A stretch of DNA of 64,000 bases from Candidatus Micrarchaeia archaeon. Lineage in GTDB: Archaea; Micrarchaeota; Micrarchaeia; Norongarragalinales; Norongarragalinaceae. A program made the translations under genes and the position numbers. Shown piece by piece: positions 2,548 through 63,984 of the stretch. The stretch covers positions 13,793 to 77,792 of the forward strand of contig JBAZPG010000004.1 of assembly GCA_041648335.1 (NCBI GenBank), written 5' to 3'. Every line of letters starts with the position of its first letter. Positions within the stretch are counted from its first letter, which is position 1. The notes under the pieces were generated by a model. It was not told where the DNA came from, did no database searches, and worked only from the letters and a program-made list of their open reading frames with translations.

Positions 2548-5500
2548 TCAAGGCACCCAGCCGCTGATTATTCCAGTCAACTCGCTTTGCGCGTAAGTCG
2601 ACGGGTCGCCCTGCGCCGCGTCGAAAACGCCGCTTGCGCCCGCACCCGCATTCGCGTTCACCAAACCGAACGCCTCCCACGGCGCGGCATTCGCGAAAAC
2701 ATCCTGTAACGCCGGCGGCACGGGCGCGCACGACGCACTCAAACCGAAACGCACAACCGTGTAAAGCCGGTTATTGAAAACAAATTCTTCCACGCCCCCT
2801 GCCTTTGCCTCGCAAATTGCAACGCAGTTCCCGGAGGGAAGCGGCGAACAAACGAAATTCGCGGTCTTGGGTTCGGGCACGAGCGCGGGCAAGCTCACGA
2901 GCATTCCACTCAATTCGGCGCACGGTGCCACCGCAAGCGAGCACGCCGCCCGGCTGCCCGTGACATCCGAGTAAAAGCTGGGCACCACCACGCTTTGCGT
3001 TTCTTGTGCCTGCGCGAGCGAAGCAAGCGTCGCCTCTTCAGTTACCCGCACCCCGTCGTCCTCGCCGTGCGCGAAACCGCACAAGCGCGTTCCGCCAGCA
3101 GTCATAATCGAAGCGGAGTAATCCCACGTTGAACCGTCCGCACTCGCTGCCTTCAACTCCACTACTGCGGGTCCGCCACACGCTTCAACCGTAAACCCTT
3201 CTTCTTCCAACGCAGTCAAGCCGCCCTCGGCGAGCTGGGCAATGCCTACGAACTCGAATTCACCAAAGCCAAGCGCCCCCGCCGGCGCCCCTGCGCCCCG
3301 TTTGAACGCGCCGGCGTTCGCCGTGCGCAACGCCTCAGCCTTGAACGCCGCCATCATTTCCTTGGCAGCCGAAGCGTCGCACCAACCGCGGCTGCAGCAC
3401 AGCCAGTCCCCGCACGATTCAACGCGGGAACCCAAATCCGTTTTTCCCGGGAACAACGAAACCTGTTGCGGGTAGTCCACGCTTGCCGAAAAACTTCCGC
3501 TCTCGAACGCGGTTGACTCAGTCAGCTCGAACGCCCTGACTGCCGGCGAATCGAACTCAACGCCGTTCACGATGCGCGAGCCGAACTGTTTCTCGTCCAA
3601 AACAAACGCGAGCTTCGCCGCGCCGTCGCCTGGCGTCAACCCGCGCGGCTCAACGAGCAACGCTTCTTCTTCAACCGCAGTCACGCTTATCGGTATTTCA
3701 AGGCGCGCGTCTTTGAGGCAGGACGCGCTCACCACCAGGCGCGCGCCCGCGTCTTCGGGCGCCGCGTTGCCGTCAACCGCAAGCGGGCACGAGGGGTTGC
3801 CTGCGTCCGCGGCTTTGAACCACACCGCCCCGTTTGCATAACCGTAACACGATTCCGTGCCCGCGCTGCTCTCGAAGCGGTAGGCAAGCCCGCACTCTTC
3901 AGCCGTCAAGTCCAACGCAACCGCGTCCGCCGGATAAATCGAGTTGACTTCCAATTCGATTTCCAAGACGCGCGACTTGAGCGCGCCCGATTCGAGCCAG
4001 AAGTCCTCGTGCGCGCCAGTAGAATTCCACGCCGTACCGTTGCCTCCGGTTGCCTCTTCCGGCTTGCTCACCTGAACCGTGAAATCCTCGGTCGCGGCAT
4101 AGCATCCTGCCTTTTCAGGCGCGCGCTCCGCGTTGCCGAGTGCTTCGTCAAGCGGGTCACGCGTCCATTCGCTTCCCTTGATTGAATAGCCGCGGTAACC
4201 GAACGACACGGTTCCCGCGCCGCCGGCGCGCACCTTGAACACGCGTTCGCCCGCGTGCGCCCGCGAACGCGAATCCACCCACTTGTAGCCCCCGTTCAAC
4301 GCCGCAACCGAATCCTGCAAGAGTGCCGCGCAATATTCCCCCGCGTCGTCCAATTCAGCCGAGCTGCGTTCCACCCAGTCGCCTTTCGGGTAGTTGGTAA
4401 TCCAGGCGTCCCCGTGCACGCTCAACGCAACGCCCGCCTCGTCCGCGCCTTCCGCGGGCACGAGGTTGAACACGAGTTCGTATTCGCGTCCTTCCTCGAA
4501 CGCGTCCACGAAACCCGAGGCGTCCCGCGCGCCCACGAACTCCACGCGTGCCGTGCCGTCCGCGCGCTCGAGCTCCACCGAACGCGCGGCGCGTTCGCCC
4601 GGTTCCAAGCCGTCCACGGAAAATTCAGTCGCGGCGTAGCCGTCCGCGTCCGCGCGCACTATTGTTTCTTCAAAAGCGTCCAACTCGAAGCCATCAGCAT
4701 CCACTGAAACCTTTTCGTTGTTTTGCGTGACCTCGAACAAGGCGCGGTCAATCGAATTATTCGCGGAGTCAACCGCGTCCAGAACAAGGAACGCCTTGCC
4801 CCACGCGAGCTTCAGGCTAATGTTCTTGTCCTCGTCGAGCGTTACGCTCGCGGACGCCCGCTTCCCGTTCGCGTAAGCGGATACTGAGTATTCGCCCGCG
4901 TCGAGGCGGAACTCCGCCCGGCCGTCAAGGGCAAAAGCGTCCGCCTTCGCCTTGCCGTCCGCCGAGCGCACCGAGAGGCTCGCATTGCCCGCGTCCACCG
5001 TGACCAACAGTTTCTTGGATGATGCAGTCGAGCGCGCCACGACTTCCACGGTGCCGCCCGGTTGGAATTCGCGGCTGGTTACGGGCGCGAAGCCCGTGCC
5101 GGTTGCAACAAAGTAAAGCGATTCGTTCGAGTACGACGAGTACACTGCCTCGCCGTTCGTTTCCGTTGATGCCAGCGGGTTCGCGGGCAGCGAGTAAACC
5201 GAAATCAAGCAGGGCACGGGCGCGCCTCGCGCGTCCACTGCGCGCAGCGTGGTGTTCACCGGCTCGGCGGACAAGGAGATTTCAAGGAAGTTCGCGCCTT
5301 CGGAGAGCACGCGCGGCTCAGCGGAGCCGTCGAGCACGCCGTCGCCGACGAATACCGCGTACGCCTCGGTGCCCGCGGGCAAACCCCGAATGATTGCGCT
5401 TCCCGCTTCCACGCGCGCGGAACCCAGGAACACGCCCGCGTTGAAGTCGCGCACGAACACTTCACCGTCAACAGGCGCGCCGCTTGCGCCGGTCACGGTG

Positions 5501-25426: not shown

Positions 25427-25511
25427 TGCCGGGGGCGGGATTCGAACCCGCGATTGACCTTAGCCAAACCGCTCGACAGGCAGTCCCCTTAACCTGCTCG
25501 GGCACCCCGGC
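25427..25511 (-). tRNA. tRNA, 85 nt, with a 16-nt extra arm but a GUC-containing anticodon loop; identity unresolved (possibly Asp-like with a non-canonical insertion)
   Basis: Minus-strand sense GCCGGGG-UG-..-ACUGC-CUGUCGA-GCGGU-UUGGCUAAGGUCAAUC-GCGGG-UUCGAAU-CCCGC-CCCCGGC-A. It has a perfect 7-bp acceptor and T arm. The only pairable anticodon stem gives loop CUGUCGA, and no CCA is encoded. Confidence 0.55.
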
Positions 25512-37278: not shown

Positions 37279-37434
37279 AAAAACACCCCGTAAAAACTAT
37301 TGTAAAAATAACCCGCAGCGGGCTTAAAAGCGTTGCCCGACGCCCCGCCAAGCAACGCCTTTTTTTACTCCGCCGCCAACAAGGGAATCGGATGATGACC
37401 AAGAACTAACAAACTCTGACTTCGTGATGAGTGA

Positions 37435-37448
37435 CGGACGGTCTGACA
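37435..37448. repeat. left copy of a perfect 14-bp direct repeat (CGGACGGTCTGACA) flanking a low-GC cassette
   Basis: The identical 14-mer recurs at 38634..38647, and the intervening ~1.2 kb is markedly AT-richer than the flanks. Confidence 0.55.
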
Positions 37449-37481
37449 ACGATTCATTAGCTTGATCAACAGTGAGGAAAA

Positions 37482-37844
37482 ATGGAAAAAACAGAATTTG
37501 AGGAATGGTTTAAACAATTGGGAAATGCGTGGTGCGCTAGAGACCCCGAAAAAGCCGCAAGCCTCTTCTCCAAGAATGTAGAATATTATGAATCGGTTTT
37601 TGAACCCCCGTGCAACTGGGACAAAGTCCTTGAACTGTGGCTTGCCGTGCCAAAAAACCAGAAGGATATTACTTACGATTTTGAAATAATATCTACTGCG
37701 GGTAATCTTGCTGTTTGTAACTGGAAAGTGTCGAGAACGATGCTTCCGGATAATAAACTACAGAGAATAAACGGAATTTTTATAATTCGGCTAAATCAAG
37801 CCGGTCTTTGCGATTACTTTAAGCAATGGCGCTCGGTGCACTAA
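37482..37844 (+). CDS. NTF2-like / SnoaL-like small protein, hypothetical
   Basis: 120 aa, low-GC codon usage, alpha+beta cone-like pattern. Confidence 0.35.
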   Translation: MEKTEFEEWFKQLGNAWCARDPEKAASLFSKNVEYYESVFEPPCNWDKVLELWLAVPKNQKDITYDFEIISTAGNLAVCNWKVSRTMLPDNKLQRINGIFIIRLNQAGLCDYFKQWRSVH

Positions 37845-38095
37845 CTTATTGAACCGAACGCAGTTTCGCGGCAAAAACCTATTTCCGCGAAAACGAGCTG
37901 GCTCTGAATGTGCGAGCGCTCAGGCAATCCCCCAAGCGTGCCTCTGACTTGCGGTTATCTTACGTTTGCCGCCGCGATTGTAAGATAATTGGTTTTCCGT
38001 TTTTCCACTGCTTAGGCGCACATCTTGCTTGCCTAGACTAAATGCAGCAGCGCTAATTCACTTTTTATACTTTTAAAAAGAATCAACGATTACTG

Positions 38096-38599
38096 ATGTA
38101 CATGAAAAAAGCGATTCTGCTGTTCGGTCCGTCCGGGGTTGGAAAAAGTACGGTGGCAGCCATGATTTGCAAAAACCATGGTTTCAAGCACTGCGACGCG
38201 GACGAATTCAAATGGCGTTATTCTCACAAGAGGTCAAAGAAACGAACCGAAATAGGCGAAGCCGAAGCATTCGCGTACGCCAAACAACTTATTCACGCAA
38301 AAGAAAATCTGGTCGTCGAAGCACTGCCCGATAAATATCTTAAAAAACTGGCGGGGCTTTTGAAGCGCGGCGGATACAAAGTGCTCGAAATCTCGCTTTG
38401 CGCATCCGTGAAGCAATGCGTGAGAAATAACGCTTCGAGAAAAAGAAAAAATTACGATGCGAAGGTAATCCGCGCAGTTTACCGAGACCTCTCTAGAAAC
38501 AGAGGCCTAGTCGTCAATACCGAGGGCTTGTCCGCTTGGCAGACGTATAACTTGATAAAAAAGGCGCTCGATAAGCGCCCGTCATTTCCGCAGAAATGA
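38096..38599 (+). CDS. P-loop NTPase / small-molecule kinase-like protein (AAA_33 / zeta-toxin-like fold)
   Basis: Walker A GPSGVGKST near the N-terminus; 167 aa; low GC. Confidence 0.55.
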   Translation: MYMKKAILLFGPSGVGKSTVAAMICKNHGFKHCDADEFKWRYSHKRSKKRTEIGEAEAFAYAKQLIHAKENLVVEALPDKYLKKLAGLLKRGGYKVLEISLCASVKQCVRNNASRKRKNYDAKVIRAVYRDLSRNRGLVVNTEGLSAWQTYNLIKKALDKRPSFPQK

Positions 38600-38633
38600 A
38601 CCGCCCTCCGTCGGTCAAGTGTTGTTCCCCTAG

Positions 38634-38647
38634 CGGACGGTCTGACA
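38634..38647. repeat. right copy of the 14-bp direct repeat (CGGACGGTCTGACA), followed by a low-complexity GAAA/CTTT inverted-repeat tract
   Basis: See the left copy; downstream GAAACTTTCTTTTCTTTCCGAAGAAAAGAAACTTTC carries dyad symmetry. Confidence 0.55.
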
Positions 38648-38757
38648 GAAACTTTCTTTTCTTTCCGAAGAAAAGAAACTTTCATGAAAGAAAAGAAGGG
38701 TTTGACTTTTCATGAAAAGAAAAAACAGCGATTCTTTCGTGAAATAAAAGAAGGGGT

Positions 38758-39729
38758 CTACCGTATCTCGCCCACGAGCTCTTCGAGTATGTCCTCGAGG
38801 GTTACCACGCCCGCGAACTCGCCTTTCTCGTCCACCACGACCGCGATGTTCCTGCCGAGCGACTGGAGGGTGGCGAACGCGTTGTGGAGTTTGTCGGTCG
38901 TATGCAACAGCACGGGTTTCGTGCACACCTTGTCCACCGTCCAGTCGGGGTGCTCGTAGAACGCCCGGACGAGCGCCTTGAACGAAATCGTGCCCACTAT
39001 CTTCTTCTGGGGGGTGAGCACCGGGAAGCGCGAGTAAACGCTCCACACCGCCTTCTTGTGCGCCTCGGCAACGGACTGTTCGGAAGACAGCATCACCGCG
39101 CTTGACTTCGGTGTCATCGCCCTTGAAACCGGGCGGTCGTTGAATTCGAGCACGTTCTCGATGAGTTCGCGCTCCTTCTCGGATATCCCCTTGTGTTTGG
39201 CGCCGAGCTTGACTGCCGAACGGACTTCGGCTTCGGTGAACTGCTCTATACCCGTAGCCGTCGAGTAAACGCCGGGGATGAGGCGGTTGATGGACTCGAA
39301 GAGCACCACCAACGGGAAGGAAAGCCAGTAGAACGCCTCGATTGCCTTAGCCGAGGACAACGCGATTTTTTCCCCGTACGTGGTGGCCGCGCTTTTCGGC
39401 GCGATGTCCCCGAAAGTCAACAACAGGAAACTCATAAGCCCGATTGCGATACCCACCCCTGCCTCCCCGAACAAGCCCGTGGATATGCTCGTCGCGAGTG
39501 CGGAGGCGGCCACGTTCGCGATGTTGCCTCCGATTAAGAGCGAAATTACCACTCGGCGGCGTTTGGAACGCAACCGCGCCAGGCTCTCCGCCCCGGGCGC
39601 CGCTTCCTCCACCAGGGAATGCAGCCGGACGGACGAGAGCGAGAGGAACGCCACTTCGGTTGCGGCGAAGAACGCGGACGCGGCAACCAACGCGGCAAGC
39701 AGCGCGGCCTGCGCATAAAAATCAAGCAT
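38758..39729 (-). CDS. CNNM/CorB-family membrane protein (DUF21 transmembrane domain plus a CBS pair)
   Basis: N-terminal DUF21 multi-TM region and C-terminal tandem CBS domains (..VVDEKGEFAGVVTLEDILEELVGEI). Confidence 0.85.
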   Translation of the reverse strand: MLDFYAQAALLAALVAASAFFAATEVAFLSLSSVRLHSLVEEAAPGAESLARLRSKRRRVVISLLIGGNIANVAASALATSISTGLFGEAGVGIAIGLMSFLLLTFGDIAPKSAATTYGEKIALSSAKAIEAFYWLSFPLVVLFESINRLIPGVYSTATGIEQFTEAEVRSAVKLGAKHKGISEKERELIENVLEFNDRPVSRAMTPKSSAVMLSSEQSVAEAHKKAVWSVYSRFPVLTPQKKIVGTISFKALVRAFYEHPDWTVDKVCTKPVLLHTTDKLHNAFATLQSLGRNIAVVVDEKGEFAGVVTLEDILEELVGEIR

Positions 39730-40499: not shown

Positions 40500-40535
40500 T
40501 CACCAATTAAGAAAACGCAGGTTAAAATGATTGGC

Positions 40536-40552
40536 TGCGTTCAATTGATTTG
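40536..40552. repeat. left copy of an imperfect 17-bp direct repeat (TGCGTTCAATTGATTTG) bounding a 4.2-kb low-GC segment
   Basis: Matches 44770..44786 (TGCGTTCAGTTTATTTC) at 14 of 17 positions. GC content drops sharply between the two copies. Confidence 0.4.
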
Positions 40553-40712
40553 ACAAAATCACATCATCCTCCCGAGGTAGGGTGTGGTATATTTCAATAG
40601 GTTAGTTGTGGACTATTATTGAACGACGTTGCATAATTTTAATATTTACCTACGAATCTATTTGACCGAAAAACATATATTACTCTTTTATCATTAATAT
40701 TGATAGATTTGT

Positions 40713-41030
40713 ATGGTTATGGCTAAAGAAGATCCGAACGAAATACTTCAGGCTCTGCTGAGGATAGAGCATCGCCTCGAGGACATGGGGGCATTACTGC
40801 GCCTGGGTCAGCGCGGACAAATCGAGCAAATCAAACAAGAATTCTTGAGTAGTGGTGTACGTAAATCAGTTTATGAGTTATGCAACGGGAACTGCTCCGT
40901 CAACGAGATGGCTGCCAAGTTGCACAAAAAGGGACCCAACATAAGCCGGGCCCTTGGAGAGCTTGAGGCTGCTGGATTGATACGGCAAATTAGGGCTGGC
41001 AGGCACGTTAGCTACGAGCGCCTGATTTGA
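40713..41030 (+). CDS. winged-HTH (ArsR/MarR-like) DNA-binding protein
   Basis: SVNEMAAKLHKKGPNISRALGELEAAGLIRQIRAGRHVSY is a recognition helix plus wing; 105 aa, low GC. Confidence 0.55.
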   Translation: MVMAKEDPNEILQALLRIEHRLEDMGALLRLGQRGQIEQIKQEFLSSGVRKSVYELCNGNCSVNEMAAKLHKKGPNISRALGELEAAGLIRQIRAGRHVSYERLI

Positions 41031-41031
41031 G

Positions 41032-41259
41032 GTGGGGAATATGAGTGAAGAAATATTAGCCCGCATAGACCGGCGTTTAGAACAACTGGTTAAGATATCT
41101 GCGTTGAATGTCGGCAAGGATTCAACTTTGACTGATAGGATAGTATTGCTCTACAAGATTGATTTCGGACCGAAAGAAATTGCAGAAATTCTTGGAACAA
41201 ATCCTAACGTGGTTAATGTTCGATTATCCGAAGCGCGAAAACGAGGCGAGATAAAATGA
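41032..41259 (+). CDS. small HTH protein, sigma-70 region-4-like (paralog 1 of 3)
   Basis: 75 aa ending PKEIAEILGTNPNVVNVRLSEARKRG; overlaps the next gene by ATGA. Confidence 0.5.
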   Translation: MGNMSEEILARIDRRLEQLVKISALNVGKDSTLTDRIVLLYKIDFGPKEIAEILGTNPNVVNVRLSEARKRGEIK

Positions 41260-41474
41260 AAATCAAATCCGAATTGGATGTATTAAACGAGATTTCAAGG
41301 AAACTAGATGTCCTAATAATCACGCTAACTTGTCAAGGCAAGTCCGAAGACGAAGTAACTCAGATATTCATGAGATCTGGGCTCAGCTGTCCTGAACTTT
41401 CTACGATAACTGGTATAAGTGTTGCTGCAATCCAAAAACGTATTGAACGCGCACGAAAACGGGTGAAAAAATGA
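41256..41474 (+). CDS. small HTH protein, sigma-70 region-4-like (paralog 2 of 3)
   Basis: 72 aa ending PELSTITGISVAAIQKRIERARKRV; overlaps the next ATG by ATGA. Confidence 0.5.
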   Translation: MKIKSELDVLNEISRKLDVLIITLTCQGKSEDEVTQIFMRSGLSCPELSTITGISVAAIQKRIERARKRVKK

Positions 41475-41638
41475 GTGACGAAGATATTGCCAAGGAGCTA
41501 GCAGACATAAAGAAATTGTTTATACTCAACTTAATGTCCGCGGGCGTAAATTCAACAGATATCGCTAAGACCCTCGGAGTAACAAAGGGGCGATTAAGTC
41601 AAATAGTAAAGCGGCCATCCAAGAAATCAACGGATTGA
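41471..41638 (+). CDS. small HTH protein, sigma-70 region-4-like (paralog 3 of 3; 55 aa, below the ORF-track length cutoff)
   Basis: Hand-translated: MSDEDIAKELADIKKLFILNLMSAGVNSTDIAKTLGVTKGRLSQIVKRPSKKSTD. It has the same HTH pattern and is translationally coupled. Confidence 0.4.
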   Translation: MSDEDIAKELADIKKLFILNLMSAGVNSTDIAKTLGVTKGRLSQIVKRPSKKSTD

Positions 41639-41680
41639 TCCTAAAAATAATGGTACAACCATAAACTCGATACAACTGGT

Positions 41681-42472
41681 TTGATAAATATGAATTCTAG
41701 CGCTCCTTTGGATGCAGATACGCTAAAGAAAAACTGCGCACATTATGCTGGTCTTCATTCCAAAGCAATCGACGTTTTGAGAAAAGCCAACGGAAAAATC
41801 GATTATAAAAAAATTGCCGAAATTCTGAGTCTTTCTAAAACTAGAGTTAGTAGCCTATTGAAGTCAGCCGAGCGATTTGGGCTCGCAAGAAAAGAGGAAA
41901 AATTATACAAAAAGTTGCCAGGTATTCTTCAGCATATGCCTAAGCGGACCACTAAAAAAACGAGTTTCAGATCCGTATCGGAGGTTATGGTTGGGGCAAC
42001 TAAAAAAGCAAGCTCATTTAAGCGTAAACCGTACATCGGTTTTAGAACCAAAACGCAAGATGAGGGCAGGATGGCTAACGCATATATTTGGGTGTATATA
42101 ACAGAAAATCTCCTGCGAGACCTCATACGGAATGTATTTTCATCAGAAAAAGACTGGTGGAACAAGCAGGTTAATGGCGCAATTAAAAAAGAAGTACGTG
42201 ACGCTATAGCCAAATACCCTTATGACGGAGCTAAAAGAAAAGATGAACTGGAATATACTCACTTGGGGCAGCTTAAAGAGATAATAACCTCAAAAATGAA
42301 TTGGAATCTATTTTTATCTCATCTCAATGAAACTGATAAAAATAGTTTTAATGCTACGGTGGAAAAAGCTATCCCCTATAGAAATTCAATTGCTCATTGC
42401 ACTCGCCTGACCTCAGAGGATTTTAAATTTGTTGAACTGAGATTCAAGGACATTTTGAAAATGATAAAATAG
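41681..42472 (+). CDS. HTH-HEPN fusion protein (N-terminal wHTH; C-terminal HEPN-like domain with an R-x4-H motif)
   Basis: N-terminal ..KKIAEILSLSKTRVSSLLKSAERFGLARK; C-terminal ..KAIPYRNSIAHCTRLTSEDF containing RNSIAH (Rx4H), reminiscent of Abi_2/Swt1-type HEPN. Confidence 0.5.
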   Translation: MINMNSSAPLDADTLKKNCAHYAGLHSKAIDVLRKANGKIDYKKIAEILSLSKTRVSSLLKSAERFGLARKEEKLYKKLPGILQHMPKRTTKKTSFRSVSEVMVGATKKASSFKRKPYIGFRTKTQDEGRMANAYIWVYITENLLRDLIRNVFSSEKDWWNKQVNGAIKKEVRDAIAKYPYDGAKRKDELEYTHLGQLKEIITSKMNWNLFLSHLNETDKNSFNATVEKAIPYRNSIAHCTRLTSEDFKFVELRFKDILKMIK

Positions 42473-42670
42473 GCAAAGATATTCTTTCTTCGGAAACAAC
42501 AAATCTTTTTTGGTATCCGACAAACCTGCGCACCTCAAGCAGCTAACCTGATCGCTCAAAAGAGTGGCTACACCCTATCTTTCCCGCTTATTTCCGCACT
42601 GAAGCGTTTTGCTCCGATTTTCAGTGGCAACGACCCCTAAGCACCTTTTTAATGCGTCTTCGGGTTTACT

Positions 42671-43552
42671 ATGCGGGGGACTGGCGTGCTAAAGGAAGCT
42701 AAACCGTTTGTTAAATGGGCTGGAGGCAAGCGCCAGCTTTTGGACGAACTCACCCGGGGCCTTCCGTCCTTTGAAAATTATCACGAACCGTTTTTGGGTG
42801 GTGCCGCGTTCTTTTTCAGGTTGGAGGCAGAAGACAGGATAAACACGGCTTTCTTGAGCGACTCCAACGAGGAACTAATCAACGCTTACTCGATAATCAA
42901 AAGTGACGTTTTCGGGTTGATGGCGGAACTATCTTCCCCGATTTACGCGAACAATGAAGCCGCTTACTACAAAATGCGGGCCTCCAAGCCTTCTTCAAAG
43001 GTAGCGCGCGCGGCGCGTTTCATTTACCTGAACAAGACCGCGTTCAACGGGTTGTACCGCGTTAATTCGAAGGGCGGTTTCAACGTTCCCTTCGGGCGTT
43101 ACGATAACCCGAAGATACTCGACAGCGAAAATCTGTTGCTGGTTCACCGCGCCTTGCAAAAAGACGAGCTTTACTGCGGCGACTTCGCGGTTGTGTTGAA
43201 GAATGCGAAACGCGGTGATTTGGTTTACTTTGACCCGCCCTATCATCCAATATCCAAGACCGCGCACTTCACGAGCTACACTAAGGACAAGTTCTCTGAG
43301 GTGGATCAAACGAAGCTCATGAAAACCGTCAAGGCGCTCGATTCGCGTGGCTGTTTCGTGTTATTGAGCAACTCGTACTCCGACTTTACCGCCGAACTTT
43401 ACGCGGAGTTCGAGCCGGAAGTGATTTTTGCAAGCAGGATGATAAACTGCAAGGGAGACCGTCGAGGCAAAGTGCAGGAGTTACTTGTCCGGAATTGGGA
43501 GCCCAAGGTAGCCCAGAGGAAGCTCGTTGAAGAAATAGTCGCAATCAACTGA
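42671..43552 (+). CDS. DNA adenine methyltransferase, Dam/D12 class (N6-adenine MTase)
   Basis: N-terminal KPFVKWAGGKRQLL (AdoMet-binding motif I region), catalytic DPPY, and FNGLYRVN. Confidence 0.9.
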   Translation: MRGTGVLKEAKPFVKWAGGKRQLLDELTRGLPSFENYHEPFLGGAAFFFRLEAEDRINTAFLSDSNEELINAYSIIKSDVFGLMAELSSPIYANNEAAYYKMRASKPSSKVARAARFIYLNKTAFNGLYRVNSKGGFNVPFGRYDNPKILDSENLLLVHRALQKDELYCGDFAVVLKNAKRGDLVYFDPPYHPISKTAHFTSYTKDKFSEVDQTKLMKTVKALDSRGCFVLLSNSYSDFTAELYAEFEPEVIFASRMINCKGDRRGKVQELLVRNWEPKVAQRKLVEEIVAIN

Positions 43553-44008
43553 TTTGATGTACGCTAAAACATCCGCGTATTCCTTCTTTTTGAACCAGTC
43601 GTTTAAGACGTAAACATACTTGACTTTCAATTTCGGTTCGACGAGCTTCTTGTACTGCTTTAACTTGAAGTCGCAGGTCTGGAGCTTCTCGTCCACCGAA
43701 CCCGCGACCGTCTGGAACTTGGTTTCAACTATGAAAAGCGTCTCGTTCACCAGAACGAGCACGGCGTCGTCCGGCAGGAGCTTCTTGGAAATCAGTTTTC
43801 CAACATTTACGCCCATCGGCGCCAACAAGCCCGAATAAAGCCTGTTTTTCTTGTAAAGGCGCGCCACATCCTTGCCCTTGAAGGTTACGGTGTCGTCGCT
43901 GACCGCGTAACCCTTGATTTTCGAGATGACCGTAGCAAAGTCGGTTCTCTTCTCGAAGTGGAGCCCGTGAAGCGTAGTTTTGCTACCGCCCTTTCCTCCG
44001 CGAATCAT
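43481..44008 (-). CDS. putative PD-(D/E)xK nuclease; candidate restriction endonuclease partnered with the Dam-like MTase
   Basis: A PDD..(x18)..IVETK arrangement is compatible with a PD-(D/E)xK core. It lies convergent to the MTase and overlaps its 3' end by ~70 nt. The start is set at the internal Met (MIRGGKGG) because the upstream part of the ORF looks non-coding. Confidence 0.3.
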   Translation of the reverse strand: MIRGGKGGSKTTLHGLHFEKRTDFATVISKIKGYAVSDDTVTFKGKDVARLYKKNRLYSGLLAPMGVNVGKLISKKLLPDDAVLVLVNETLFIVETKFQTVAGSVDEKLQTCDFKLKQYKKLVEPKLKVKYVYVLNDWFKKKEYADVLAYIKSVDCDYFFNELPLGYLGLPIPDK

Positions 44009-44146
44009 AATACTAACAATATTGCCGGGTATTTTAGGTTTTAGCGGCTTCAGGTTTTGCTCTTTAAACCCCGTTTTGGGCGAGTTAAAGGAGAATAGCG
44101 CCGGATTTAGGAGTAGTTTTAAATCCGTCTTGGTTTTAGTTGTTTT

Positions 44147-44704
44147 ATGCCCGCGCCAAATAAGAAGTACGACTACTGCGATCCCATCCAGTTGAATTTG
44201 AAGAACAAAACGCGAGAAGAATTTAGACGGAGTATAGTAACCTGCTTTCTTTTGGAAAACAAGGGGTATTGGGACGATGAAGTCCAGCATGTTATGCATT
44301 ACACTTATTTTGTAGAAACAATAGCCGATGGTTCAAGAATTTACTTAAAGCGTCCCGCGCGTTTAAACAAGGGAATGGATTTTCAAGTAAATGCAGAAAA
44401 TTTTCTTAAATATGAAAACGGTAATAACAAACCACCCAGCCACAAGGACATAATAAAGGACCTAAAAAATAAAAAAAAAGAAGCTCCTAAAAAATTTGCG
44501 CAATTGATGAAGTTAATTGCGCGGGTCTATAATTGCGAAGAGCCAGATGAAGTTCTGTCCGGCAGTAATCTAAAATTTAATTCGGGTGCAACCATAGAAT
44601 TGTTGTTGAAATTATTGAAATGGTTGTTTATCGAACAGGATATGACTTACTGGAGTTATGATGGCCGCGAAATGCTTAAACGAGGAATAGACGAACTGGC
44701 GTGA
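44147..44704 (+). CDS. hypothetical basic protein (185 aa), low GC
   Basis: Coding-like Lys/Glu/Asn-rich composition in the AT-rich island; no motif. Confidence 0.35.
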   Translation: MPAPNKKYDYCDPIQLNLKNKTREEFRRSIVTCFLLENKGYWDDEVQHVMHYTYFVETIADGSRIYLKRPARLNKGMDFQVNAENFLKYENGNNKPPSHKDIIKDLKNKKKEAPKKFAQLMKLIARVYNCEEPDEVLSGSNLKFNSGATIELLLKLLKWLFIEQDMTYWSYDGREMLKRGIDELA

Positions 44705-44769
44705 ACGCGATTTTCATATATTTTATGCGCAGATCTGACCGTGAGCGGAGAATTCATTTAGCGCAAAGT

Positions 44770-44786
44770 TGCGTTCAGTTTATTTC
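44770..44786. repeat. right copy of the imperfect 17-bp direct repeat (TGCGTTCAGTTTATTTC)
   Basis: See 40536..40552. Confidence 0.4.
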
Positions 44787-45003
44787 GGCGAGCTTGCGCT
44801 TGACTTCCTCGTAATCCTCGTGGAGCCGGCGGTCTCTTTTCAGGGGGTCCATGCGGACCTTGGCTTCGAGTTCGATGAGTTTCGCCTTCAAACCCGACTT
44901 CCTGCGTTCCAAATCCTTTTTGCTCAAACCCATAAACGAATCGCCTCTCTACTAACTTGACGAGGAAGCGGAAGGTTTTAAGCGCGCCGCTTGGACGCCT
45001 AAG

Positions 45004-46170
45004 TTAAAACGGGATGTCGTCTTCGCTAGGTTTTCCTTTATTTTTCCTTGCAACCAATTGCCTGAAAATCCGCGAGGCGGCGCCTTGTTTGTATTTTTCG
45101 CGTTTTTCTTTCGCTTTTTTTCGCGCGTCCTCCAGCGTCGGTTTCTCGAGCGGAACTACAGAAGCATGTAAATTTTCGTAGTCTTTCAACTGTCCGTCAT
45201 AGTCTTTCAACAAATGGCGTTCGTAAGCTTCTTCGATTCTTTTGATTGTTTCTTTGGGCAGTTGCTGGAAGTGCGGGGTTATCTCGTGCGCGTCATCGAA
45301 TATTACCTGGCGCAATTCTGCGGCCAAGTGGTTTTCTTCGGTTGAACCGCCGGTCGAGTAATCCCAGCCAATTTCGCCCGGACGCCGGTTAGGTGCATTT
45401 CCCTTCTTGCCTTCTTCCTTCAAGTATGTGCCCGCAAGTGCTTTGGTTACGCGCGCGGTTCTCTCGCTTGGTTCCATTTTTTTCAACCAACCGGAAAGTA
45501 CGCAAACGCCGTTCTGCCGAGCGATGCGCGAGCGTTTGTCATTCAACAAGTTCAAGGCGTATTCCACGCCTTCGGGCGCACCCAAACGTACTAATGTCCT
45601 GACGGCATCGCTGCGGGTATTTTTGTTAGGGTCTTCGAGAAAGGGCAGCAGATGGCGTACGAGGTGCGGGTCACCCGAGAAGGCAATGGATTGGATTAAC
45701 TTGCTTCTCACGAAACTGCTTTTTTGGTCCGGCGCATGTAATGCTTGACAGGCGCCGAACGCGATTTCCGGGTAGTGCATAAATGCAGCTAATTTTTCGG
45801 CGGCGATGGCGCGCACCCAGTGGCTTCGGTCCCCGGTTGCTACCTTCAAGAGTTCTTCGCCCGCCGTCTGGCTCTTACGTCCACTCAATTTTTCCAGGTT
45901 GGCCAGCGCGCGCACTGCGGTTCCGCGGACTTCAAAGCGAGGGTCCCCGCGGATTAATTGGATTAACTTTCCATGGGCTTCCGGGGCGTCGATTGAGCCG
46001 AGAGCTGCCGCGAGTTTTACCCGTTTTTCCACGCCCGCGTTTTCAAACGAGGAGACGAGTTTAGCAAGGATTCCCGCTGGAATTTCATTCGAGATTATTC
46101 TTTGGCGGGGGTATTCAAATCGCGAACTAACATTATCCACCTTACTCCTTTGTTGCATCCATTTCGGCAT
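45004..46170 (-). CDS. HEAT-repeat (PBS-lyase-type) protein
   Basis: Multiple DPxxxVRxxAxxALxxxG repeats (DPRFEVRGTAVRALANL, DRSHWVRAIAAEKLA, DPNKNTRSDAVRTLVRLG). Confidence 0.7.
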   Translation of the reverse strand: MPKWMQQRSKVDNVSSRFEYPRQRIISNEIPAGILAKLVSSFENAGVEKRVKLAAALGSIDAPEAHGKLIQLIRGDPRFEVRGTAVRALANLEKLSGRKSQTAGEELLKVATGDRSHWVRAIAAEKLAAFMHYPEIAFGACQALHAPDQKSSFVRSKLIQSIAFSGDPHLVRHLLPFLEDPNKNTRSDAVRTLVRLGAPEGVEYALNLLNDKRSRIARQNGVCVLSGWLKKMEPSERTARVTKALAGTYLKEEGKKGNAPNRRPGEIGWDYSTGGSTEENHLAAELRQVIFDDAHEITPHFQQLPKETIKRIEEAYERHLLKDYDGQLKDYENLHASVVPLEKPTLEDARKKAKEKREKYKQGAASRIFRQLVARKNKGKPSEDDIPF

Positions 46171-46224
46171 GATGCTCCTTGTTCCGCGGTGCTTTTATTT
46201 ATTGTGCGACGGTGCGGATTGGCT

Positions 46225-62402: not shown

Positions 62403-62852
62403 TTACTCGGGTTTGAGGTTGCCTTCGAGTGCCTTGAGTTGTTTCGCGGTGGTGGTGATCCAGGCGGGTGGTTGCCCGAGGTGCTCGCCTTTCACTAGTG
62501 CTTGGTAAAACGTGATGAATGCTTTCGGGTTGTCGACAGGGTTTACGTGTTGGCGGGCGATTACTGCCAGGTTATCGGGGTGCTCGTTCTTGATTGCTTC
62601 AGCAATTGCACCGATTGCTCGAGCGGCGTAATCGCGCACAAGTGAGTCAGGGTCGTTTATTCCTTTTTCTGGTGCGGTTAATGGTTCGAGTCCGTCGTAG
62701 TGTCCTATTGCGCCGATTACTGCGGCAGCGTTTGCACGTATTACCGCCCACCGTTCGTTATTTGTATCGGAGTAGCTTAATTTTTTTACCTCGCTTTGAA
62801 ATCGCTCGTATTGCGAGTGCCCGGGTTCCATTGGTCGGATGCGGGGAGTCAT
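62403..62852 (-). CDS. small HEAT-repeat protein, member of a tandem paralog array (1 of 3)
   Basis: Ends ..FYQALVKGEHLGQPPAWITTTAKQLKALEGNLKPE; N-terminal PMEPGHSQYERFQS; start immediately follows the stop of the upstream paralog. Confidence 0.6.
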   Translation of the reverse strand: MTPRIRPMEPGHSQYERFQSEVKKLSYSDTNNERWAVIRANAAAVIGAIGHYDGLEPLTAPEKGINDPDSLVRDYAARAIGAIAEAIKNEHPDNLAVIARQHVNPVDNPKAFITFYQALVKGEHLGQPPAWITTTAKQLKALEGNLKPE

Positions 62853-63493
62853 TTCAGGTTGCCTTCCAACGCTTTCAGTTGTTTCGCGTAAGTAGTAATC
62901 CAGGCGGGCGGTTGCCCGAGGTGCTCGCCGTTCATTAGTGCTTGGTAAAACTTGAAGAAGGCTTTCCAGTGTTCGTTGGGGTTGATGTGGTTCGCGGCGA
63001 TTGCGAGAATGTGGTCGGGATGAGTTATCTTAATTTTTTCGGCGATTGTAATGAGTGCCAGACGGAGGTTCTCAAGTATGCCCTGATTGTATGGTTCGTT
63101 TAAGGCAAAGTGTATGTTTAGTTTTTCGGTTATGACGGGTATTACATTGATTACTAGTTTGTTATTGGGCTGTTCTGTGCTGGTTTTTTCTAATATTTCT
63201 CTGAGCGCATCCGTAGCGATGGCGCGTACTTGATAATCTGAATCGTTTATTCCTTGTTCTTTGGCGGTTAGAAGGGGTATCATATCTGGGTGTCCGATGT
63301 CCCTGAATTTTATTATGGCTGCCGTGCGTTTTTTCCTATCTAGTTCCTCTACCCATTTTATTGCGGCTGCCGCGTCGGCTGCCGTGCGCGTTTTCCAGAC
63401 GTCGTGGTAAGTTAAGTCCATCCTCGCCTTTTGGAAGGCATTGTATTGTGGGTGTTCGCGGTCCATTGGTTGGATGCTTGGTGCGGGTTTCAT
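62849..63493 (-). CDS. small HEAT-repeat protein, tandem paralog (2 of 3)
   Basis: Ends ..FYQALMNGEHLGQPPAWITTYAKQLKALEGNLK. Start set at the ATG (MKPAPSIQPMDREHPQY) that directly follows the upstream stop. Confidence 0.6.
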   Translation of the reverse strand: MKPAPSIQPMDREHPQYNAFQKARMDLTYHDVWKTRTAADAAAAIKWVEELDRKKRTAAIIKFRDIGHPDMIPLLTAKEQGINDSDYQVRAIATDALREILEKTSTEQPNNKLVINVIPVITEKLNIHFALNEPYNQGILENLRLALITIAEKIKITHPDHILAIAANHINPNEHWKAFFKFYQALMNGEHLGQPPAWITTYAKQLKALEGNLK

Positions 63494-63984
63494 TTTAGGT
63501 TGCCTTCCAGCGCTTTCAGTTGTTTCGCGGTGGTGGTGAGCCAAGCGGGCGGTTGCCCGCGGTGCTCGCCTTTCGCTAGTGACTCGTAAAATTTGCTGAA
63601 TGCTTTCGGGTTGTCGATGGGGTTAATGTGTTGGCGGGCGATTACCGCGTGGTGTTCGGGTTGCTCGTCCTTGATTGCTTCAATGATTGCGTTGATTGCT
63701 TTGGCCGCGTATTCGCGCGTCGTTCCATCTAATTCGTAGTTTATTGCTTTTTCGATTAGCGGTTTGATTCCATCTGGGTGACCGATTTTGCCGATTGCTT
63801 GGACGATTTTCCAGCGCACAGCGGTGTATGGCTCGTTTAGTGCTTTTTCTAGTGGTTTGATTCCGGCCGGGTGTCCTATTCTGTCGATTGTTTCGACGCC
63901 TTCCTCGCGGATATATGCTTCGGGGTGGCTTAATTTTTCTACCGCACTTTGGAATCGCTCGTATTGCGGGTGTCCGGGTTTCAT
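63490..63984 (-). CDS. small HEAT-repeat protein, tandem paralog (3 of 3)
   Basis: Ends ..FYESLAKGEHRGQPPAWLTTTAKQLKALEGNLK; N-terminal MKPGHPQYERFQSAVEKL; repeated DGIKPL/IGHPDGIKPL units. Confidence 0.6.
   Translation of the reverse strand: MKPGHPQYERFQSAVEKLSHPEAYIREEGVETIDRIGHPAGIKPLEKALNEPYTAVRWKIVQAIGKIGHPDGIKPLIEKAINYELDGTTREYAAKAINAIIEAIKDEQPEHHAVIARQHINPIDNPKAFSKFYESLAKGEHRGQPPAWLTTTAKQLKALEGNLK

Follow-up and report, generated by a model that had tools for sequence, protein, structure and literature searches.

A low-GC, integrase-less segment probably integrated at the 3' end of a box C/D sRNA gene in a Micrarchaeia archaeon

The repeat pair and the sRNA gene at the locus

The DNA analyzed here (the window: 64,000 nucleotides of contig JBAZPG010000004.1, positions 13,793 to 77,792, from the Candidatus Micrarchaeia archaeon assembly GCA_041648335.1) contains a 14-mer, CGGACGGTCTGACA, that occurs exactly twice on the plus strand, at 37435–37448 and 38634–38647. 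Between the two copies lies a segment of 1185 bp (37449–38633) with a guanine-cytosine (GC) content of 45.4%, compared with approximately 60% in the 3 kb on each side. This segment encodes a SnoaL/NTF2-like protein and a P-loop kinase. An earlier note on this DNA had described a low-GC gene pair bracketed by a perfect repeat and had taken it for a small inserted cassette, with the repeat as an attachment (att) core or a target-site duplication. The description holds, but the note missed that the left copy of the repeat is the 3' end of a gene for a box C/D small RNA (sRNA). Together with the comparisons presented below, these features indicate that the segment is probably foreign DNA integrated site-specifically at this sRNA gene. 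Identical DNA is also present in a 533-kb ENA contig and in a Logan contig.

The sRNA gene was placed at 37385–37455 of the plus strand (core 37388–37448) by an Rfam scan and by a model built from relatives. Its boxes are all present in the canonical order C-D'-C'-D: box C (ATGATGA) at 37392–37398, box D' (CTGA) at 37416–37419, box C' (GTGATGA) at 37424–37430, and box D (CTGA) at 37443–37446. The 12-nt D guide GTGACGGACGGT (also given as GUGACGGACGGU) fills the plus-strand interval 37431–37442. The best Rfam model was sR2 (29.1 bits, window-wide E = 0.018, 37388–37448, plus strand), and 10 C/D families, including sR2, matched these positions in one register. In the scan of the whole window, the sRNA was the only match other than transfer RNAs (tRNAs), apart from one spurious match with E = 0.92. 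The score for sR2 falls short of the Rfam gathering score of 42. Because Rfam families are lineage-specific and have other guides, this shortfall lowers the case for membership in sR2, but not the case for a C/D sRNA.

Further support came from a metagenome collection, in which a pattern composed of box C', the D guide, and box D (TGATGANNGACGGACGGTCTGA, 20 specified bases) was found at 33 loci, compared with approximately one estimated by chance; these loci were retrieved with the window's own 3' half and a fixed D guide, such that the conservation of the guide is not estimable from them. A box C is present 27–95 nt upstream in 29 of the 33 loci. The 5' half of the gene (box C, CC, and box D') provides independent support because it lies outside the search pattern. 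A sequence-only model was also built from nine relatives but not from the window itself; it had a single match in the window (37387–37448, 46.4 bits, E = 1.8e-13). The C-to-D' spacer is 17 nt long in the window, whereas it is 12–13 nt long in eight of the nine relatives; the D guide has exactly 12 nt. Judged by sequence, 37388–37448 is a conserved archaeal box C/D sRNA gene, for which expression and a methylation target are presumed. The left 14-mer is made up of the final 8 nt of the D guide, followed by box D and the dinucleotide CA, and is therefore the 3' end of the RNA gene.

A TATA-box-like element, TTTTTTTA, is readable at 37360–37367 (plus strand), approximately 22–25 nt upstream of the sRNA 5' end, and is a candidate promoter of the sRNA. 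This spacing between TATA box and start is in line with archaeal promoters. In addition, folding of the DNA points to a possible terminal stem of the sRNA, in which GAATCG (37385–37390) and CGATTC (37450–37455) form a perfect 6-bp pairing between host sequence and the start of the insert. The D guide, taken as its reverse complement ACCGTCCGTCAC, agrees at 11 of 12 positions with the universally conserved decoding-center sequence of 16S rRNA (ACCGCCCGUCAC, Escherichia coli 1398–1409); the mismatch falls on the predicted methylation position (N+5), and this target is not claimed. Neither the window nor the metagenome loci retrieved contain an rRNA gene.

The identity of the two 14-mer copies stops sharply, and the flanking sequences on either side are unrelated. 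No third copy exists within the window, even at two mismatches. Taken alone, a perfect 14-mer pair counts for little, because such exact pairs are common in the window: there are 143 direct exact 14-mer k-mer pairs, with approximately 11 independent pairs within 3 kb, and 7 of 100 shuffles gave at least two matches of this 14-mer at up to two mismatches. Among 624 pairs of 200-nt segments lying 1.1 kb apart, at least 14 nt in common were found only here and in one true tandem repeat, which corresponds to a positional p value of approximately 1/600. The right copy (38634–38647) is directly preceded by the right end of the insert, CCCCTAG (38627–38633, plus strand). No terminal inverted repeats of at least 7 nt were found at the ends of the cassette. 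A candidate division into two tandem elements, with a decayed middle att site at 37930–37949, was rejected as 32% of random segments score as high.

Empty sites and recurrent occupation of the same position

The window was compared with archaeal metagenome contigs and loci (labeled L followed by a number). The insertion lies between a gene for a 136-aa membrane protein on the left (memb136) and a CNNM/CBS gene on the right. Two relatives are syntenic with the window. In L068, memb136 is 79% identical at the amino acid level, a GT4 glycosyltransferase 72%, and a dCTP deaminase 66%. L060/L039 (60% GC) has memb136 at 54% identity, together with nitroreductase, ArsR, GT4, and dCTP deaminase genes. 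Positions 4622–4657 of L068 align to 37412–37448 of the window and positions 4644–4776 to 38634–38768, and the overlap between the two alignments is one 14-mer. The same overlap of one 14-mer was found for L060/L039. When 37449–38647 is removed, the window aligns colinearly across the junction to both relatives. In both, box D is directly followed by (CA)GAAACTTTCTTTTCTTCCCGAAGAAAAGAAACTTTCATGAAAGAAAAGAAGG, which is also the sequence after the right 14-mer of the window. For the window locus, the junction of an empty site would read GTGACGGACGGTCTGACAGAAACTTTC. The earlier note had set out beforehand that an insertion should leave a locus with a single 14-mer in relatives, and both relatives have this empty site with contiguous flanks. 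This is decisive proof that the repeat is not a product of chance. Two further searches yielded no additional sites: the CNNM gene as a synteny anchor gave no conserved gene order in GTDB genomes or among its closest homologs (59–76% identity) and no empty site, and memb136 as a query against metagenome contigs found no relative.

The comparison also delimits the right side of the element. A T-rich hairpin with an 11-bp stem, TTTCTTTTCTT-TCCG-AAGAAAAGAAA, lies at 38653–38678 on the plus strand, as predicted by folding. It is followed at 38679–38755 by three direct repeats of approximately 22 nt (CTTTCATGAAAGAAAAGAAGGG, plus strand) at a spacing of 27–28 nt, extending up to the stop codon of the CNNM gene at 38758. 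The hairpin is conserved in L068, L060, and L039, where it comes straight after box D, and the repeats are conserved in L068. Because these relatives have no insertion, both features are host sequence and not parts of the element. The GAAA/CTTT-rich dyad reported after the right repeat is thus real as a structure, but it does not belong to the inserted segment. The hairpin is probably the terminator of the sRNA gene. The 22-nt units contain a palindrome, TTTCATGAAA, and occur in at least three copies, and the hairpin and units were also observed at L068 4660–4790 and in L060. The whole may represent an array of terminators or of protein-binding sites, or else another small RNA.

The same site is occupied in other archaea. 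In L042, L051, and L024/L025, perfect repeats that start at the same nucleotide (CGGACGG...) enclose unrelated cargo. L042 has a 15-bp repeat (CGGACGGTCTGACTA) around an insert of 1665 bp with an amidohydrolase-like gene. L051 has a 15-bp repeat (CGGACGGTCTGATGC) around an insert of 893 bp with a ParE-like toxin-antitoxin pair, as well as a remnant of approximately 100 bp beside a partial core. L024/L025 has the 15-bp repeat CGGACGGTCTGACTA around an insert of 2621 bp (45% GC) that carries TrmB and an NT/HEPN pair; this insert is followed in tandem by a second element (Fic, Dus, and others). L024/L025 belongs to a Micrarchaeota relative, in which the CNNM protein is 76% identical to that of the window and its gene is convergent with the sRNA as in the window. 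The right ends of these inserts (CTCCTAG in L042, GACCCAG in L051, and GGCTCAG in L024) stand directly in front of the core and may be compared with that of the window.

With the window copy, there are four such independent integrase-less units of 0.9–2.6 kb, all with perfect repeats of 14–15 bp and intact cargo open reading frames (ORFs). The nucleotides after box D are lineage-specific (CA, CTA, or TGC). In the group-B sRNAs, the TGC after box D pairs with GCA at the sRNA 5' end; therefore, the repeat ends at the end of the RNA gene, as in elements that target tRNA genes. Apart from these units, three pairs of loci (L043 and L054, L058 and L061, and L038 and L053) are nearly identical over the sRNA and its upstream region and diverge a few nucleotides after box D, which suggests further occupied/empty polymorphisms in other lineages.

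Integrases, mechanism, and alternative explanations

Three of the loci compared have a tyrosine recombinase gene 61–253 nt after box D, co-oriented with the sRNA. The L058 integrase (396 aa; Phage_integrase, E = 2e-22) has a C-terminal zinc ribbon, and its gene is followed by a restriction-modification pair. The L043 integrase has 443 aa (Phage_integrase, E = 9e-18), and L044 has an N-terminal fragment of 161 aa that is 56% identical to the L058 integrase and is followed by a TraG/HerA-like ATPase. Identity between the integrases of L058 and L043 is 30%, and their best score is to an archaeal XerA/integron-integrase model, below its threshold. On these sequence matches, the three integrases are related to XerA-type recombinases.

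Another feature, common to several of the occupied sites, is a left-end motif. In the window it reads AGCTTGATCAACA and lies at 37459–37471 (plus strand), 10–22 nt after the core, which is the same offset as in other elements: AGCCTGACCAACA in L058, GCCTGAGCGRCA in L056, L055, and L024, and TCTGAGCGA in L042. In its similarity to the other left ends, the left end of the window element ranks above 99.8% of random segments (empirical p of approximately 0.001–0.002), and the motif is a candidate recombinase-binding site. It is by position and this motif only that the integrases are tied to the 14–15-bp core, because the contigs that carry them end before an attR. In L058, read in reverse complement, palindromes (TTTCCTAGGAAA) and repeats of the CATAGGAAA type flank the integrase gene (+60 to +130 and +1445 to +1520 after box D). 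Both occur again, twice, in the integrase-less element of L051, at 2995–3010 and 3630–3645. These repeats may be arm-type sites for integrase binding.

Taken together, these findings make it likely that 37449–38633 is foreign DNA that entered by site-specific integration, with the 3' end of the C/D sRNA gene as its chromosomal attachment site (attB), most likely through a Xer-like tyrosine recombinase, and that it persists as an integrase-less cassette or remnant. In such an event, an attP carrying the terminal 14–15 nt of the sRNA would recombine with the chromosomal sRNA gene. The gene would be restored at attL, with the left 14-mer as the attL core, and the displaced 3' end would be left at attR beside the native T-rich hairpin. 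The catalyst would be a Xer-like tyrosine recombinase of the kind encoded beside the same sRNA position in other archaeal contigs. For the window element, the junction of the circular form (attP) would be TTCCCCTAGCGGACGGTCTGACAACGATTC, with the core given as CGGACGGTCTGA. The observations at the locus fit this scheme: direct repeats are present at both ends and relatives have a one-core empty site, the core overlaps the 3' end of the sRNA, and the sRNA is intact at attL. Because no integrase is carried, the window copy would be either a cassette mobilizable in trans, similar to cis-mobilizable elements (CIMEs), or a deletion remnant. As in CIMEs, the att sites are intact, there is no int gene, and the left-end motif is common with L058, L056, and L024; an integrase encoded by the element itself is found at this site in L058, L043, and L044, but not in the window. 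The recombinase chemistry, the choice between mobilization in trans and decay, and read-through from the sRNA promoter are the parts that we infer.

Several observations weigh against this explanation. Neither the insert nor the rest of the window contains an integrase or a relic of one, as the earlier note had already remarked of the cassette. The left-end motif is absent from the left ends of L043 and L044, and the available contig sequence of the L058, L043, and L044 elements contains no attR. No episomal or viral form was found in IMG/VR with the attP junction, the sRNA pattern, a core-plus-CTGA pattern, or the L058 integrase as queries, and no circular form was found. The terminal stem of the sRNA takes 6 nt (37450–37455) from the insert, whereas a simple model of integration predicts none, and the empty sites of relatives have no equivalent stem; the stem may be either a coincidence (approximately 1 in 100 by our own estimate) or an element end adapted to the host sRNA. 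Finally, the repeats are fixed at 14–15 bp with lineage-specific nucleotides after box D, and a duplication by staggered cuts would look alike.

Within the same integration mechanism, the window element may be a decayed remnant, in which a larger L058-like element lost its integrase and most genes by internal deletion and only the two att cores and two cargo genes were left. This version is tenable, although we regard it as somewhat improbable. Integrase-bearing elements do occupy the site elsewhere, the truncated integrase of L044 shows that decay happens, the small remnant beside the partial core in L051 points in the same direction, and no helper integrase is seen in the window. However, the four integrase-less units with perfect repeats and intact ORFs, several of them with the left-end motif, look more like a maintained substrate of recombination than like products of decay, and the tandem arrays of L024 and L051 fit an accretion of mobilizable units.

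Explanations other than site-specific recombination at the sRNA gene fare worse. The constant repeat length raises the question of transposition with staggered cuts of 14–15 bp, by a casposase-like or other transposase, in which case the repeats would be target-site duplications and the cassettes non-autonomous transposons. Casposons produce duplications of 14–15 bp and insert preferentially where tRNA or EF-2 genes end (3'), and the constant repeat length, the same start nucleotide in four lineages, and the lineage-specific bases after box D would all be compatible with this mode. It is nevertheless improbable: terminal inverted repeats are missing at the 7-nt limit given above, the ends are asymmetric (a conserved motif on the left and a short CYAG end on the right), the ORFs examined at the site include no Cas1, PolB, or transposase, the recombinases beside the site are tyrosine integrases, and the group-B TGC tail, by pairing with the sRNA 5' GCA, belongs to the RNA gene, which is what an attP restoring its target should carry. 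Insertion of integron-type cassettes into a secondary site by an integron integrase is very improbable. The units are small and consist of cargo only, including toxin-antitoxin genes, and a homolog of the SnoaL protein (64% identical) is a cassette of an integron-like array in L012. However, the boundaries in the window lack GTTRRRY/RYYYAAC core sites, no attC-like hairpin lies upstream of either 14-mer (fold z-scores of +0.4 to +1.4; the 257-nt spacer between the cargo genes was checked for attC by eye and by folding), and integron recombination creates no 14-bp direct repeat; the window also contains no array and no IntI. A chance repeat around natively AT-rich genes can be practically dismissed. 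Exact 14-mer pairs are common in the window and the shuffle test of the 14-mer alone is not striking, but chance is refuted by the empty sites in two syntenic relatives, three more perfect repeats at the same nucleotide, and the positional p value.

A broader proposal can be made, which is rather unlikely as it stands: in DPANN and other archaea, the sRNA 3' end may serve as a platform dedicated to gene capture, where a family of Xer-like integrases would insert and accrete small integrase-less cassettes (toxin-antitoxin systems, enzymes, and restriction-modification systems) at the core formed by guide and box D. The site would then have an attI-like function, and co-oriented cassettes such as the SnoaL gene would be expressed by read-through from the sRNA promoter. 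Such a platform would represent a class of attB not described before and a cassette system distinct from integrons.

Cargo genes, other features, and relation to known systems

The first cargo gene (37482–37844, plus strand, 41% GC) encodes the SnoaL/NTF2-like protein of 120 aa (Pfam SnoaL_2, E = 4.6e-8), and the second (38102–38599, plus strand) encodes the P-loop kinase, with 165 aa from the ATG at 38102 or 167 aa from 38096 (Pfam AAA_33, E = 1.3e-9). The NTF2/SnoaL-like and Walker-A kinase assignments made earlier are thus supported. The 257-nt spacer between the genes (37845–38101, plus strand) is structured (fold z-scores of -1.9 to -2.2), with hairpins such as TTATCTTAC/GTAAGATAA at approximately 37956–37990 and a TATA-like CTTTTTATAC before the kinase gene; it has no Rfam match. 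The SnoaL gene is preceded by a Shine-Dalgarno-like GTGAGG, and no AT-rich promoter element was found between the sRNA and its ATG. As this gene has no AT box of its own, transcripts that start at the sRNA promoter TTTTTTTA may extend into it.

The best homologs of the cargo genes are at most 66% identical and occur in unrelated contexts, with the nearest in low-GC archaeal contigs. No relative was found that has both genes together or at native GC content, and the alternative raised by the earlier note, namely the same genes at native GC without repeats, is therefore not borne out. For the SnoaL-like protein, no solved close relative was found; its homologs adjoin superoxide dismutase/peroxiredoxin genes, sit in an apparent integron, or lie near toxin-antitoxin genes. 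Homologs of the kinase adjoin gatB/ubiB in marine archaea. In sequence, the kinase comes closest to T4 polynucleotide kinase, in its kinase domain (PDB 1ly1; E = 1.7e-5, 26–27% identity, root-mean-square deviation of approximately 3 Å), and its AlphaFold2 model (pLDDT 87.8) had Foldseek matches to gluconate, adenylate, and polynucleotide kinases. The suggestion of a zeta-toxin- or Fic-like kinase in an addiction module is not supported. The kinase is not Fic-like, scores 17 bits against Zeta_toxin (cut-off 22.3), has no zeta toxin among its top 50 fold matches, and lacks a conserved partner gene. Homologs of the two proteins are never adjacent elsewhere, and there is therefore no evidence for a functional pair.

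The SnoaL homolog in L012 (P0016) occupies the first cassette position next to a XerA/IntI-like integrase (L012 4859–5937). This integrase has approximately 272 aa and scores 195 bits with NCBIfam XerA_Arch and 183 bits with integrase_gron. Contexts diverge exactly at G|TTAGAC / GTTAGGC, which are core sites of the integron type. In L015 (900–960), the junction comes after a short hairpin (GCTAACGCAATT..AATTGC..GTTAGGC). The arrangement looks like an integron in an organism with 33–38% GC. The third gene of L018 contains, at 2007–2100, a second copy (94 bp) of the attI-proximal region.

Elsewhere in the window, a second low-GC island (36–52% GC) extends over approximately 40500–46200. It contains genes for a MarR/CasR-like helix-turn-helix (HTH) protein, three small HTH ORFs, a 185-aa ORF, a HEAT-repeat protein, an HEPN_Swt1/PDC-M34B-like protein (41681–42472), and a D12 N6-adenine methyltransferase (42671–43552) convergent with a 272-aa putative restriction enzyme (43481–44299). 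The earlier note had seen a second insertion of the same kind 2 kb away from the cassette. The island is real and, by composition, probably foreign, but insertion of the same kind is not supported, as neither a flanking direct repeat of at least 10 nt nor an RNA gene at the borders was found. The end of the Logan contig falls within the methyltransferase gene, at 43506. The tRNA-Asp(GTC) gene on the minus strand (25427–25511) is 85 nt long and has an insertion of approximately 13 nt near the variable region in the Rfam alignment, which could represent either a non-canonically placed intron or a variable arm of unusual length. Finally, 62430–63640 contains several long exact direct repeats (up to at least 22 nt, with spacings of 440, 641, and 1081 nt), which suggests a gene with internally repeated domains.

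RNA genes, chiefly those of tRNA and transfer-messenger RNA (tmRNA), are classic landing pads for integrating elements because they are conserved and tolerant of reconstitution. The window element resembles the elements found at tRNA/tmRNA 3' ends (pNOB8-, SNJ2-, pT26-2-, and TKV-type; classes of Williams, 2002) in several respects. The target is the 3' end of a gene for a small, conserved, structured RNA; a short block of identity terminates together with the gene, which is restored at attL while a 3' fragment remains at attR; and foreign composition, tandem accretion, and an integrase beside attL (here in L058 and L043) are also in common. Unlike the targets of these elements, the gene used here encodes a box C/D methylation-guide sRNA; in addition, the window copy lacks an integrase, and the hosts include Micrarchaeota (DPANN). 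In a 2021 review on the tyrosine recombinases of archaea (PMC8371274), the attB sites are tRNA genes, intergenic sites, or protein-coding genes; sRNA and snoRNA genes go unmentioned. Full-text literature searches on C/D sRNA with integrase or att found no report of a C/D sRNA gene as attB, and literature searches on DPANN mobile elements found no description of such elements in DPANN/Micrarchaeota.

Other systems share some of these features. The cargo-only units resemble CIMEs and satellites in having intact att repeats without int or xis, the same attB as integrase-bearing relatives, and sometimes a tandem arrangement. CIMEs are integrase-less islands flanked by att sites, for example in the ICESt lineages of Streptococcus thermophilus. 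In this case, however, the host is an archaeon and the attB is an sRNA gene. Casposons also have 14–15-bp direct repeats at a highly specific site by the 3' end of a conserved gene, whereas the window element has no Cas1 or PolB (its ORFs are the SnoaL-like protein and the kinase), no terminal inverted repeats, and a site linked to tyrosine integrases. Integrons were reportedly found in archaea by Ghaly et al. in 2022. The units resemble integron cassettes in their size of approximately 1 kb, variable cargo with frequent toxin-antitoxin genes, the lack of a recombinase of their own, and a possible resident promoter upstream. They differ in that the window has no attC, no GTTRRRY junctions, and no array, and in that the repeat is a piece of an sRNA gene. 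The target itself is similar to known archaeal C/D sRNAs (Rfam sR2, sR12, and sR7) in box order, the 12-nt D guide, a size of approximately 60 nt, and the occurrence of its D guide in many genomes, but it scores below the gathering thresholds of these species-specific families and has the 17-nt C-to-D' spacer.

These comparisons show that a C/D methylation-guide sRNA gene can serve as a landing pad, with its most conserved part (guide and box D) as the core, and that the site is a recurrent hotspot across several archaeal lineages, including the genome-reduced Micrarchaeota (DPANN), in which gene acquisition is poorly understood. The combination of an sRNA 3' end, a 14–15-bp repeat, and the left-end motif provides a searchable signature for small cargo cassettes without an integrase, which are missed by island- and provirus-finders; it also offers a candidate integrase/att pair for experiments. 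For annotation, C/D sRNA genes should be considered as potential island boundaries. The logic of integration at RNA genes is the known part of the present case; what would be new is the type of gene targeted, together with the set of miniature cassettes that Micrarchaeota and related archaea carry without an integrase.

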